Shown here piece by piece: positions 49,817 through 54,320 of a stretch of DNA of 64,000 nt. Position 1 is the stretch's first letter, and every line of letters starts with the position of its first letter. Source of the stretch: an uncultured archaeon (lineage in GTDB: Archaea; Aenigmatarchaeota; Aenigmatarchaeia; GW2011-AR5). The stretch lies in contig CAYJVT010000001.1 in the NCBI GenBank assembly GCA_964373695.1, positions 37,773 through 101,772 of the forward strand, given 5' to 3'. The notes beneath the pieces were generated by a model, which worked only from the letters and a program-made list of their open reading frames with translations, made no database searches and was not told the DNA's origin. The position numbers and the translations under genes are program-made.

Positions 49817-50914
49817 ATGATGAAGGTCGCACTCTGTACCGAAACCGTCTACCCCATATACGGGGTCGAGCGCCGCGTCTACGAGATGGCGAAACGCCTG
49901 CCCAAGCATGGTATAGAGCCCGTTCTCATAACGTCCTTGGGAAAGGAGTACGACCATGGCATAAGGACGGTAAAGGCCAGCGACCCTACGATATCAATAC
50001 CTCCGAAAAGGTTATACGGAAACTGCATCAGATATTCCGTAAACACAATGAGATTTGCCCTTGAGGGGTACGACATCATAGACGCCAACGGCCACTTGTC
50101 CTTGTTACCGTGCTTCATGGCATCAAAACTGTCGGGCAGGCCTGCCGTGGCCACCATACATGATGTTTACGGCAGCAGCTGGAAGTCGATGTACAAGAGC
50201 CCGCTGTCCTTCGCTGGAAAATACGCCGAGCGCTTCCTGTGCAAGCTGCCTTACCGGAAGCTTGTGCTTCTAAACAACACGACGAAAAAGCGCCTTATTT
50301 CTATGGGAGTGCCGGAAGAGCGTATTTCGGTTATCTACAGCGGCATAGACACCAAAAAGATAGATTCGGTGAAATCCGGCAGGAAGTCTGGCGATCGTGT
50401 GTTATATGTCGGCCGCCTCGCTCCGCAGAAAAACCTTGACATCCTCATCAGGGCCTTTTCGATGCTGAATAACAAGGCCTCGCTGAGGATAGTTGGAGAT
50501 GGAAGCGAATCTGGAAGGCTAAGGTCGCTTTCGAACTCTCTTGGGATTGACGTCGAGTTCGTCGGGAAGGTTTCCAACGAACGAGCGATAAGGGAAATGA
50601 AGGAGGCCTCTATACTTGCACTTACATCGTCAAGGGAGAATTTCGGCATAGTGCCGCTTGAGGCTATGAGGTGCGGCGCCGTTGTGGTGTCGACAAGGAC
50701 GGAAGGGCCGGTGGATTACATAAGGGATGGGAAGAACGGGTTCCTGGCCAACATAGGGGATGTGAAACGTGTAGCAGACAAGATGGACCTCCTGCTTTCC
50801 GACAAAGGCCTCATGTCAAGGATGAGAAGGAACGGGTTCAGGACGTCATCTGAATTCGACTGGGACAAAATAGTCGGCGAAATAGCGCATCTTTACAGGG
50901 AAATACTAGGATGA
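49817..50914 (+). CDS. GT4 glycosyltransferase
   Basis: YGVERRVYE, HDVY, YVGRL.PQKN, RENFGIVPLEAM.CG. Confidence 0.92.
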   Translation: MMKVALCTETVYPIYGVERRVYEMAKRLPKHGIEPVLITSLGKEYDHGIRTVKASDPTISIPPKRLYGNCIRYSVNTMRFALEGYDIIDANGHLSLLPCFMASKLSGRPAVATIHDVYGSSWKSMYKSPLSFAGKYAERFLCKLPYRKLVLLNNTTKKRLISMGVPEERISVIYSGIDTKKIDSVKSGRKSGDRVLYVGRLAPQKNLDILIRAFSMLNNKASLRIVGDGSESGRLRSLSNSLGIDVEFVGKVSNERAIREMKEASILALTSSRENFGIVPLEAMRCGAVVVSTRTEGPVDYIRDGKNGFLANIGDVKRVADKMDLLLSDKGLMSRMRRNGFRTSSEFDWDKIVGEIAHLYREILG

Positions 50915-51919
50915 CTCGGGGAATGTCACCCTGTAAAGCTTTACTTCGCCGCCCCAGTTGTTGACAAGCTTGAAGTTTTCCAGTCCGGAGCCGTCAAGGA
51001 ACATCAGGCGTGTAAACATGGAACCTTGGAGCTCAGACGGCACGAATATGACACTCGACTTGTCCGGCGACTGTATTAGAAGTCCAGGCACTTCTGCGTT
51101 TTCATTCCTCGATATTACCCCGCTAGACTGCGTGAAGAAAAGGAGGTTTTCCACTGTTCCGACGGTATTGCCCTGCTGCACGAAGGCGCGTCTTGTCCCG
51201 TTTATTTCATATATCAGGAACGACTGCTGTGAGGAAAATGGGTACGAATAGATTATGGCATTGTCTGCAGGGGATGGCCTGGCCTGCTGCAATCTCACAG
51301 TTATGTAATTGTAGCAGCTTCCCTTATTGAGCTCGGAATTGCACGGCCTGGGAGAGCCCTCCGGACTCCAAGTGGCAAAATATGTCCACCATGTGCTTTT
51401 TCCTATTAAGTCAGATGATGCTATGTAATAGAATTCGCTGCATCCAGGCTGCTTGTAGTCCTCCAGGTACTTCAGGGCGAGACTTTCATTTGATGTGAAA
51501 AGCGATATGGCGATGTCCTTTATCCTGGCCCTGAAGAGTGTGACATCATCGGTTTCGGAGTTGTAGGCCTTGTTTATTATCTGCACTATTCCGTTGTCGT
51601 AATTTTCCAGGCGTATGTCGTTTTCTTCCATGTCCGAATACTTTGGGTCGTCAAAATAAAGCGTGTCGCTTTGGTGCGCACCGTCAAAAACCACTGGCCT
51701 TCTTGCAAGTCCTGTGATGAAGTGCCCAGGGTCCCAGTATGTGGCGATAACGGCACACTCTTCCGTGTTCTGGTTTATCCATGTCAGGGCCTCGTACCAG
51801 TTGTCATCCAGGACGGTCCCCTGATTCTTCGCGATGATTGACGCGGGCGAAAAGTAGTAGAAATTAGCGACCAGGAGTATGAATGCCATGACAATTGCGA
51901 CCAAGACTGTTCTTTTCAT
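50906..51919 (-). CDS. aglB: Oligosaccharyltransferase AglB, C-terminal part (last TM + soluble domain)
   Basis: N-terminal signal-anchor, WYEAL.WI..NT....VIATYWDPGHFI (WWDYG variant), R....DG, RIKDIA, SDLIGK (DK-like), SMFTRL. Confidence 0.88.
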   Translation of the reverse strand: MKRTVLVAIVMAFILLVANFYYFSPASIIAKNQGTVLDDNWYEALTWINQNTEECAVIATYWDPGHFITGLARRPVVFDGAHQSDTLYFDDPKYSDMEENDIRLENYDNGIVQIINKAYNSETDDVTLFRARIKDIAISLFTSNESLALKYLEDYKQPGCSEFYYIASSDLIGKSTWWTYFATWSPEGSPRPCNSELNKGSCYNYITVRLQQARPSPADNAIIYSYPFSSQQSFLIYEINGTRRAFVQQGNTVGTVENLLFFTQSSGVISRNENAEVPGLLIQSPDKSSVIFVPSELQGSMFTRLMFLDGSGLENFKLVNNWGGEVKLYRVTFPESS

Positions 51920-51923
51920 ATCA

Positions 51924-53132
51924 TCAATCCTCTATTTTGGCGTCCTCTCCGGTAGCCATGCGTATTAGCTTTGACAGTATTATGCCGGAGCCTATCGCCA
52001 TTGGCGCCGTGAACAGTATTGAGAAGCGGACGGCGACAAGCGTGGCGGCAAACGGCCCGACAAACCATATAAACAAAAGGAATAGCGTGTCTATATGCTG
52101 CCTCTTCCTTATGAACGAGTAGAAAAGGTACATGAGGCAGTATAGCATGAGGAAGAACGGCGATATGAGTATTCCTATTCCCTGCACGGCGCTGGTCCTG
52201 GATATTATTTCCCTCGCTCCGCCGCTCTGCTGAAGCTCTGCCACGGACACATAGACGTTGGGGAATACTATCTTCTCCTCGCCCTTTATGCTCTGGAACT
52301 CGAAGGGGCCCCTCAAGACATACAGGTTCTTGTCGGCGCCGTATATGGATGTCAGTATCAGCGACATGACGAATATGTATATTCCATAGCTTGCAAGGAT
52401 ATGCTTTATGCTGCCGAGCGAGGCTTTCAGGTTTCTGCTGCCGGCAAGATGGAACATGAATTTCAGGATGATAAGACCAGAAATTATCCATACTATGTAC
52501 CAGTAGCCTATCCATGTGTTTGCCCATATCCCTAGGAGTATTCCAAGGGCGATGGAATATGAGATGAATTTCTTGTCGAATTTTCTCGTTCGTTCTATGT
52601 ATTTGTATGAATAGATGAAAACTGCCATGACTATCATCGGGATGAGAAGCACGAAGCCGTCGTTGTCGGGGTCGCCGGCAAGGGATCTCGCCACTAGGGA
52701 CAGGTCAAAAACGGTGAAGAAGGCCGCGAGAAGTCCCGCCTTTTTGTCGTACAGAGCCTTCCCTATGAAATACATGGGTATTGCTATGAGCGCAGCGATA
52801 AACGCGGGGAAGTATATCAGATACTGCCACATCTGCATTTCGGGGATAAATATCCTCAGAAGCATGAATGAGTAGGCTCCGAAATATTCGTACGGATGCA
52901 GCTCGAAGTTCCTCGTCGTGCCGACTGGCGATCTGACCAGCTCATCTCTTTCAGGCAGTACGCCGTTCTCGACGATGTCATCCATGAACCTTGCGAACGT
53001 GTAAGAGTCTATGTTCCTGAGATACTGCCATCTGTACTCCTCCACCCTCACGTAAAAGGTCAGAAGGACAATAAGGATAAGGCATATGGGGGCCCAGTTC
53101 TTCTTGATAAACTCCAAAGCCCTTCGCTTCAT
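51924..53132 (-). CDS. aglB: Oligosaccharyltransferase AglB, N-terminal membrane part
   Basis: IDSYTFAR (EL1 Asp), RSLAGDPDND (DxD), VSVAELQ (TIXE/SVSE), AVRF (conserved Arg) and about 12 TM segments. Confidence 0.9.
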   Translation of the reverse strand: MKRRALEFIKKNWAPICLILIVLLTFYVRVEEYRWQYLRNIDSYTFARFMDDIVENGVLPERDELVRSPVGTTRNFELHPYEYFGAYSFMLLRIFIPEMQMWQYLIYFPAFIAALIAIPMYFIGKALYDKKAGLLAAFFTVFDLSLVARSLAGDPDNDGFVLLIPMIVMAVFIYSYKYIERTRKFDKKFISYSIALGILLGIWANTWIGYWYIVWIISGLIILKFMFHLAGSRNLKASLGSIKHILASYGIYIFVMSLILTSIYGADKNLYVLRGPFEFQSIKGEEKIVFPNVYVSVAELQQSGGAREIISRTSAVQGIGILISPFFLMLYCLMYLFYSFIRKRQHIDTLFLLFIWFVGPFAATLVAVRFSILFTAPMAIGSGIILSKLIRMATGEDAKIED

Positions 53133-53162: not shown

Positions 53163-54320
53163 CTACATCAGAAGGCTTCTGTAAAATGAAACTATGTCAA
53201 TTTCGCCGTTTACGTGATTTGCCAGCGCGAGAAGCTGCATGAAGAAAAACAATGAGAATATTACGGCAATAGCTATGGACATCCTTCTGGACTTTTCGGA
53301 AATTCCGGACATAGCCGCGAATATTGGGAACATCATAAGCTCGAATCTAGTGACCGAAGACAGTATTCCTGAAGAGAATATCATGATGAAGCTGAAAGCG
53401 ACATACATGACATATTCCGGGGGTATTTTTTTCCAGCAAAGCGCCAGTATGGAAATAAACGCCAGAGACATCACTATGTTGAAATAATTGTACAGCACAA
53501 CGAAAAGGCTTTCTGTCGAGGCTATTTCATTCAGCGTGTTCAGGAAGGCGGTGTGAGGAAGCCCTATTCCCCTGCTGAACTGGCCCTGCGTGTAGAACTG
53601 GAGCAGGGGGTCGCCGAAGGCGGCGTAATGATAGAGCATGACGGTGACAAAAGCGGCCGGCACGAGAAGCGTGAGGAGTATTTTCCTGTCCACGTTCCTT
53701 ATCTTGAAGCCCTTCTCCCTCATGTACATGTAGAGTAGGGGGATGAACATGGAAATCCCGACGAAGCGCGTCAGCGTGGCGAAATATCCCATTACGCCGG
53801 CATAATGCCACCTGCCTTTTAGGGCAAAATAGAACGTCATACAGGAGAAAAACAGGAATATCGGCTCGGTATAAAGCGCTGTCAGGAAGTACGCTGACGG
53901 GAACATCAGCATATATATTATGGATTTTCTTGTCTGGCGTTCGCTCCATGTCTGCCTGAGAAGTATGTACATGGATGCTATTGCAAGGAATGAGAATATC
54001 TGGGGTAATAAATAAGCTGCGATATCATGTCCCACGAATCCGAGGGCCGCTATGAGAAACGGATAGAACGGGTACCAGCCGAAATTAGTTGTCGTCACGC
54101 CGTATTCGTAGTTGTACCCCATGGTGGCTATGTCCAGGTAAGCCCTTGTATCAAACTGGTGCCATGGCCTTATTAACGGGTTCTGCAGTTCGGTATTCTT
54201 GTGGGAAAACTGCTCCGGAACTGCGTAATAGGATGCAGTCGCAAACGACAGTATCAGTATTTTGTATACGATGAATATGACGAGTATTTTTTTCAGTCCG
54301 CCGTCCATGTGTATTTTCAT
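53163..54320 (-). CDS. PIG-V/GT76-like mannosyltransferase (GT-C)
   Basis: WHQFDTRAYLDIA..GY, WYPFYP, FPSAYFL.A.YTE..F, LTRFVG, RF....FP. Confidence 0.85.
   Translation of the reverse strand: MKIHMDGGLKKILVIFIVYKILILSFATASYYAVPEQFSHKNTELQNPLIRPWHQFDTRAYLDIATMGYNYEYGVTTTNFGWYPFYPFLIAALGFVGHDIAAYLLPQIFSFLAIASMYILLRQTWSERQTRKSIIYMLMFPSAYFLTALYTEPIFLFFSCMTFYFALKGRWHYAGVMGYFATLTRFVGISMFIPLLYMYMREKGFKIRNVDRKILLTLLVPAAFVTVMLYHYAAFGDPLLQFYTQGQFSRGIGLPHTAFLNTLNEIASTESLFVVLYNYFNIVMSLAFISILALCWKKIPPEYVMYVAFSFIMIFSSGILSSVTRFELMMFPIFAAMSGISEKSRRMSIAIAVIFSLFFFMQLLALANHVNGEIDIVSFYRSLLM

Follow-up and report, generated by a model that had tools for sequence, protein, structure and literature searches.

The catalytic subunit of an oligosaccharyltransferase (OST), AglB, is encoded by two co-oriented open reading frames (ORFs) in different frames, aglB-N and aglB-C, in a 64,000-nucleotide stretch of DNA from an uncultured groundwater archaeon of the Aenigmatarchaeota (GenBank assembly GCA_964373695.1, contig CAYJVT010000001.1, positions 37,773 to 101,772; hereafter the window, whose numbering is used throughout). 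On the minus strand the junction between the two ORFs reads GAG GAT TGA TGA T ATG AAA, such that aglB-C begins 4 nt past the first stop of aglB-N in the +1 frame, and the GAGGA within the last two codons of aglB-N is Shine-Dalgarno-like (Table 1). An earlier reading of this DNA from its letters alone, here called the sequence-only reading, had described the STT3/AglB catalytic motifs as shared out over two adjacent co-oriented genes, with a double stop and then a fresh ATG between them. Re-reading returned the same coordinates and junction letters, and the motifs were located in both ORFs. Our analysis indicates that the pair very probably encodes a functional, obligate two-chain OST, for which co-transcribed and translationally coupled genes would yield chains that insert separately and assemble into the STT3 fold.

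Table 1. The split aglB locus and its sequence features (window coordinates; residue numbers refer to the respective ORF; TM, transmembrane).
Feature	Position	Strand	Remarks
aglB-N ORF	53132..51924	minus	402 aa; STT3/AglB membrane core, ~TM1-TM12 and catalytic loops; stop TGA 51926-51924
aglB-C ORF	51919..50906	minus	337 aa; N-terminal signal-anchor helix (TM13 equivalent) and external globular domain
Junction	51917..51932	minus	GAGGA 51932-51928, TGA 51926-51924, TGA 51923-51921, T, ATG 51919-51917 (direct reading)
aglB-N D42 codon, in NIDSY	53007..53009	minus	putative catalytic Asp of external loop 1; invariant in 20 sequences from 8 families
aglB-N D154-P-D156-N-D158	52659..52673	minus	DxD-type metal-binding motif (putative); D154, P155, D156 and D158 invariant
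aglB-N S296-V-A-E299	52236..52247	minus	TIXE/SVSE-type motif of external loop 5; V295, S296 and E299 invariant
aglB-C residues 2-32	51824..51916	minus	signal-anchor/TM13-equivalent helix; AlphaFold2 helix, hydropathy peak at residues 5-23
aglB-C Y61-W-D-P-G65	51725..51739	minus	at the WWDXG position; aligned to WWDYG of STT3/AglB
aglB-C residues 81-129	51533..51679	minus	variable acidic segment between FDG and the R-x-R-I-K/Q-D-I helix; 12 D/E and 3 K/R in 49 aa
TATA-box-like element TTTATATAAAAA	53141..53152	minus	~10-20 nt upstream of the aglB-N ATG (direct reading)

Each half can be recognized as part of an OST catalytic subunit. The product of aglB-N matches the Pfam STT3 family (PF02516, glycosyltransferase family GT66) at 74.6 bits (cut-off 24.5; 1.4e-20) over profile positions 10-373 of 405, and D42, D154/D156/D158 and E299 are its putative catalytic-site acidic residues, assigned by motif position. 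The best Foldseek match of its AlphaFold2 (AF2) model is Archaeoglobus fulgidus AglB-L (3wak, TMq 0.69). The model has a predicted local distance difference test score (pLDDT) of 84, with low confidence confined to the external loop 5 (EL5) at residues 282-300, which we presume would fit the flexible EL5 of solved OSTs. For aglB-C no Pfam match was obtained. An alignment with the STT3 of human and yeast and the AglB of Pyrococcus covers its residues 15-86 and extends from the last TM helix up to and including WWDYG. Its AF2 model (pLDDT 92) opens with a helix of 31 residues that leads into a mixed alpha/beta domain, and each of its top 37 Foldseek matches is an OST catalytic subunit or the C-terminal domain of one (PglB 6gxc, 9e-11; Pyrococcus AglB 3vu1). 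The modelled helix and the alignment from TM13 onward agree with the proposal of the sequence-only reading that the break lies within the loop preceding the last TM helix and that the second gene carries its own signal-anchor. Behind the acidic segment lies a conserved helix, R-x-R-I-(K/Q)-D-I-A, in which R132 is nearly invariant and D135 invariant, and which resembles, by pattern alone, the MI-type IxxI pattern. A 13-TM core with a C-terminal external domain is attained only as the sum of both chains. Membership in TIGR04154 (archaeo_STT3, the archaeosortase A-associated OST) was rejected, as aglB-N (71.9 bits) and aglB-C (20.8 bits) both fall far under its cut-off of 450 bits. As a side observation, the aglB-N of the sister species G001 (L005:2007-3281, minus strand; 425 aa) has an unrelated hydrophobic segment, 23 aa longer, at about residues 225-270, and is otherwise ~90% identical.

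Split genes in metagenome-assembled genomes (MAGs) are often artefacts, and the two ORFs could in principle stem from an error in sequencing or assembly, or from a gene that broke recently and is heading for loss. The evidence from the DNA itself and from its relatives makes this the least probable of the explanations that we weighed. Per-run Logan contigs of three sequencing runs (X1, X2 and X4, of which X1 and X2 are possibly the source sample) span 51915-51930 with 0 differences and 0 gaps; the three assemblies thus agree over the interval for which the sequence-only reading had proposed a check of the reads, and none contains a continuous ORF. Neither half contains internal stops, and apparent internal stops in the C halves of two relatives (G010 and G024) proved to be natural gene ends. 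In addition, the same cut occurs in about 60 distinct genomes from many studies, and the ratio of nonsynonymous to synonymous substitution rates (dN/dS) is 0.06-0.12, as detailed below.

The two halves are also the only AglB found in this genome (1.02 Mb in 60 contigs, 91% complete): PF02516, TIGR04154 and a fused relative of 714 aa, used as queries, brought up no second aglB and no other OST. The sequence-only reading had named a separate intact aglB as the mark of a decaying duplicate, and no such gene was found. Residues 19-404 of the fused relative match aglB-N and residues 405-711 match aglB-C, with no other match in the genome, and this collinearity indicates that nothing is missing at the cut. 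Contig C14 of the present genome (G000) carries a divergently transcribed pair of polytopic GT-C-like proteins of 440 and 451 aa (L003:1031-2353, minus strand; L004:547-1902, plus strand), in which a short C-terminal region alone resembles the STT3 WWDYG neighbourhood and FLEGHW and WQWGHW replace WWDxG; similar pairs are present in several relatives. These proteins were considered as spare AglBs and rejected, given that only ~40-80 residues match near WWDYG, where FLEGH and WQWGH stand instead, that neither has an STT3 Pfam match, and that the hhalign probability against aglB-N is 0.4.

The split is a stable property of the surrounding lineage. In a search of 41 genomes of the same genus, family and order (G000 included), the N half was found in 36 and the C half in 37, adjacent and co-oriented wherever contigs allow. 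The sequence-only reading had asked whether related genomes share the split point, and about 60 distinct relatives, spread over at least 11 GTDB families, have the cut at the corresponding alignment position. Every N ORF stops at one and the same alignment column, past the presumed TM12, in a ...GEDKxxED tail. Among the 21 loci with both ORFs delimited, 17 have the halves -4 to +13 nt apart; in the wider locus set the distance is -11 to +13 nt. The arrangement GAGGA(T)-stop-ATG recurs in most relatives, often with the GAGGA-like motif within the last N codons. The frame relation between N and C varies among relatives, which excludes a shared frameshift error. Against G001, a 95%-identical species, dN/dS is 0.12 for the N half and 0.064 for the C half, and both halves are under purifying selection. 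Across 8 families (20 sequences), 34 columns are invariant in N and 53 in C, the latter including ATYWDPGHFI, WW177-178 and GGEV. The closest relative is 95% identical in the C half, and the nearest loci are mostly from groundwater MAGs. The shared cut, the purifying selection and the missing second aglB together back the earlier view of a clean two-subunit design and no random frameshift.

The close spacing of the genes raises the question of whether a fused polypeptide is still made, through programmed frameshifting, stop-codon readthrough or protein trans-splicing. The halves abut, with 4 nt between them here, and at two loci (L028 and L029) they are separated by just an in-frame TAA. However, a fused product from the present locus would require two stops and a +1 shift to be overcome, the frame relation and the spacing vary freely among relatives, and each C ORF has its own ATG and Shine-Dalgarno-like motif. 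Moreover, no intein-like sequence is seen at the ends, one genus has a complete gene inserted between N and C, and three species carry the two on separate contigs. We therefore regard a fused product as very improbable.

These rearranged loci bear on how far the two halves have become independent of each other. In genus g16 the two halves are separated by a gene for an S-adenosylmethionine-dependent methyltransferase (L082:2120-2782, plus strand; 220 aa; Methyltransf_11, 1.7e-21), which shares 20 nt with the end of aglB-N. Eight loci of genus g48 have the ancestral order of Obg GTPase, N and C, and in three of its species (G055, G161 and G091) C directly follows Obg and N is on a different contig. 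The N gene adjoins an AAA_14/DUF4143 ATPase gene in G055 and G091, and the G161 contig stops inside N; in G055 the N gene also lies within a different sugar-gene context. Three species share the unlinked state, and their flanks are conserved. In G055, the AAA_14/DUF4143 ATPase gene that follows aglB-N is itself followed directly by a 35-aa relic of the aglB-N 3' end (L142:4082-4186, plus strand; 69% identical), which hints that the ATPase cassette was inserted at the old N/C junction. The C subunit itself has also changed. In many genera one or two TM hairpins have been added before the TM13 equivalent, and a crude count from hydropathy gives the subunit 1, ~3 or ~5 TM helices; because the number of added helices is even, the N-in topology would be kept.

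Both the unlinked halves in three species and a C subunit that evolves features of its own, with 1, 3 or 5 TM helices, would be compatible with two functional genes that no longer make one enzyme, N being some other GT-C glycosyltransferase and C an independent tethered peptide- or glycan-binding protein. We consider this improbable, as nearly all relatives have both halves in tight coupling, the catalytic and sequon-site motifs are invariant in both, and no other OST was found in the genome. In addition, the halves have been re-fused three times with neither part lost, and their predicted interface, described below, reproduces the single-chain architecture.

The history of the split was reconstructed from a sample of 301 genomes of the phylum. 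Stand-alone C halves (open frames of ~290-520 aa) occur in the order of the present genome (families f1-f8) and in f13, f23 and f34, and single frames of ~680-875 aa occur in families including f11, f14, f18, f19, f20, f24 and f25. In a tree of 75 distinct C domains, 62 of them split, rooted on fused forms, all split forms fall in one clade with a support of 99 in the Shimodaira-Hasegawa-like approximate likelihood-ratio test (SH-aLRT), and four fused proteins are nested within it at three places (G065 with G045, G030, and G263). The fewest changes on this tree number four, one split and three re-fusions. This supports a single split early in a large Aenigmatarchaeota clade, kept since and followed by three re-fusions. 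In line with a secondary fusion, the re-fused G263 protein still has the two additional TM helices found in its split sisters. When a C-half profile was run against 1.84 billion representative proteins, the ~23 best matches were stand-alone proteins or fragments of 240-435 aa. Distant short matches outside the phylum (P0107 and P0140) are of the WWDFG type, start just before TM13 and lie on 1.7-kb contigs. Two entries titled 'Thermoplasmata archaeon B82_G9' (L111) and 'Candidatus Pacearchaeota SRBZ-2_201901_bins_113' (L134) carry split C halves that are near-identical in the tree to those of Aenigmatarchaeota MAGs, and their titles are probably taxonomic mislabels.

The sequon-binding motif and the acidic segment had both been pointed out as possible sources of altered acceptor specificity. 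The YWDPG variant of WWDYG is present and aligned at the expected position; it is peculiar neither to this gene nor to the split, being invariant in the order and shared by f13, whether the gene is split or fused. The motif reads WWDPG in the fused outgroup families and f34, and WWDQG in f23. Proline at motif position 4 is therefore widespread across the phylum, with f23 carrying Gln, and the replacement of the first Trp by Tyr is a trait of the clade whose distribution does not follow that of the split. Variation at the fourth position of WWDXG is known in Euryarchaeota (PMC11407970). The insert after FDG, which the sequence-only reading had put at roughly 45 residues, is indeed acidic and spans 49 aa. 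Its size depends on the reference chosen: it is ~30 aa longer than in the shortest relatives, variable, and absent or shorter in G004, G012, G016, G017, G029, G031 and G037, which represent several genera. It is modelled as beta strands with pLDDT 87-94. That either YWDPG or the acidic segment alters sequon specificity is speculation.

Structure prediction of the two halves as a complex, another check that had been suggested, places them in the arrangement of a single-chain enzyme. The complex reached an interaction prediction score from aligned errors (ipSAE) of 0.77, a mark that 58 of 80 solved complexes attained, as did 2 of 110 mismatched pairs, and the best control scored 0.00; runs agree in at least 97% of contacts, with partner pLDDT of at least 86. 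In the predicted interface the C helix contacts N residues 25-48, 135-151 and 382-395, and the YWDPG loop (62-67) contacts the external loop 1 (EL1) region around D42. These models suggest a mechanism in which AglB-N would provide the site for the lipid-linked glycan and the metal (D42, D154/D156/D158 and E299), and AglB-C would insert independently by means of the former TM13, now a signal-anchor helix of N-in/C-out orientation, and would supply an external domain whose YWDPG loop is predicted to form the binding pocket for the sequon's +2 Ser/Thr. Co-transcription and translational coupling of the genes are most likely, with the GAG GAT at the end of aglB-N serving as a candidate ribosome-binding site for aglB-C. 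Within the membrane the two chains would probably combine to give the usual STT3 fold, with TM13 packed on TM1, TM12 and the helix around residues 135-151 and the external domain docked on EL1 and EL5.

Several points weigh against this two-chain enzyme. As structures of single-chain OSTs have been solved, the performance of the complex model may be a memory of these, and the model speaks for a fit of the halves to a known fold and not for binding. The first Trp of WWDXG is Tyr here, so that sequon recognition is not guaranteed even with W-D-x-G retained, and OST activity with the Asn of N-x-S/T as the acceptor is a prediction from sequence and model. Among the RNA runs on record, none contains this DNA. 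All genomes are MAGs or single-amplified genomes (SAGs), which makes the unlinked state dependent on binning, and the tree comes from a quick search on the C domain alone. We still judge the functional two-chain OST very probable.

The neighbouring genes provide some context. A 385-aa GT-C-like gene (53163-54320, minus strand), with a weak PMT_2 match under the cut-off, ends 30 nt upstream of aglB-N and may belong to the same glycosylation gene set. The gap between the two genes holds the TATA-box-like element of Table 1, a candidate promoter element for aglB-N. On the other side, a convergent GT4 glycosyltransferase gene (49817-50914, plus strand) overlaps the 9 stop-proximal nt of aglB-C with its end (50906-50914).

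To our knowledge, all characterised OST catalytic subunits (STT3, AglB and PglB) are single-chain. The two ORFs depart from the family in this respect, which does not speak against their homology to it. The TM13 and the external domain of OSTs are regarded as integral to the active site. A split that is kept under selection, apparently even when unlinked, would make the TM12-TM13 loop a natural seam, and would show that the peptide-binding part can be delivered in trans and that the C subunit is open to extra TM helices. It is tempting to speculate that the split has functional consequences, with AglB-C acting as an independent sequon-binding module whose separate supply or exchange could set when, or which, sequons are glycosylated. 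The TM hairpins that AglB-C gains, its movement in the genome, its clade-specific YWDPG loop and its variable acidic segment suggest such a module; we hold the idea to be rather doubtful. If true, this would be the first OST with a separable peptide-recognition subunit. For structural biologists and glyco-engineers the locus would offer a natural two-piece OST design, and for OST specialists a split AglB, as an enzyme predicted from sequence and models, should be of real interest. For annotators, it provides a reason against labelling these genes, of which the C half is without a Pfam match, as hypothetical or as pseudogenes.

A full-text literature search, whose coverage left out one key phylogenetic survey, found no published account of a split AglB or STT3. 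Small-genome DPANN archaea, Nanoarchaeum equitans and its relatives, are known for split genes (PMC3655853). In that paper STT3 appears just as a divergent homologue, in a reply to reviewers, and a paper on archaeal gene fusion and fission (PMC11237513) does not mention 'oligosaccharyl'. The re-fusions, the unlinked and interrupted arrangements and the extra TM hairpins of the C subunit are new findings of this analysis. A comparable case is that of the split Alg13/Alg14 and EpsE/EpsF glycosyltransferases, which belong to the same pathway. Many lineages encode the two domains of this enzyme separately, and a single split was followed by several re-fusions (PMC8993221, PMC4973528). One split and three re-fusions in AglB parallel the Alg13/Alg14 pattern of PMC8993221. 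However, Alg13/Alg14 is a GT-B enzyme divided into a membrane anchor and a soluble catalytic domain, whereas AglB here is a polytopic GT-C protein cut within its TM bundle.

Among the known OSTs, Campylobacter lari PglB (PDB 3RCE, 5OGL, 6GXC), a single-subunit OST with a 13-TM core and a periplasmic domain, provides the best structural match of the C half (9e-11) at an identity of 10-13%. Unlike the split AglB, it is a single chain with an extended D/E-x-N-x-S/T sequon and an MI motif. A. fulgidus AglB-L (PDB 3WAJ, 3WAK, 5GMY, 7E9S) shares its fold with both parts, has a like EL1 Asp, DxD and EL5 Glu, and carries its WWDXG-type loop after TM13, in the same position as aglB-C. It is one polypeptide of ~870 aa with WWDYG, whereas the enzyme described here comes from two genes, cut between TM12 and TM13, and has YWDPG, a much smaller external domain (~300 aa) and a variable acidic segment. 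The fused AglBs of other Aenigmatarchaeota families (e.g. G113, 714 aa) are collinear with the split pair over the whole length and likewise have Pro at motif position 4, but are single ORFs with WWDPG in place of YWDPG and form the outgroup to the split clade.

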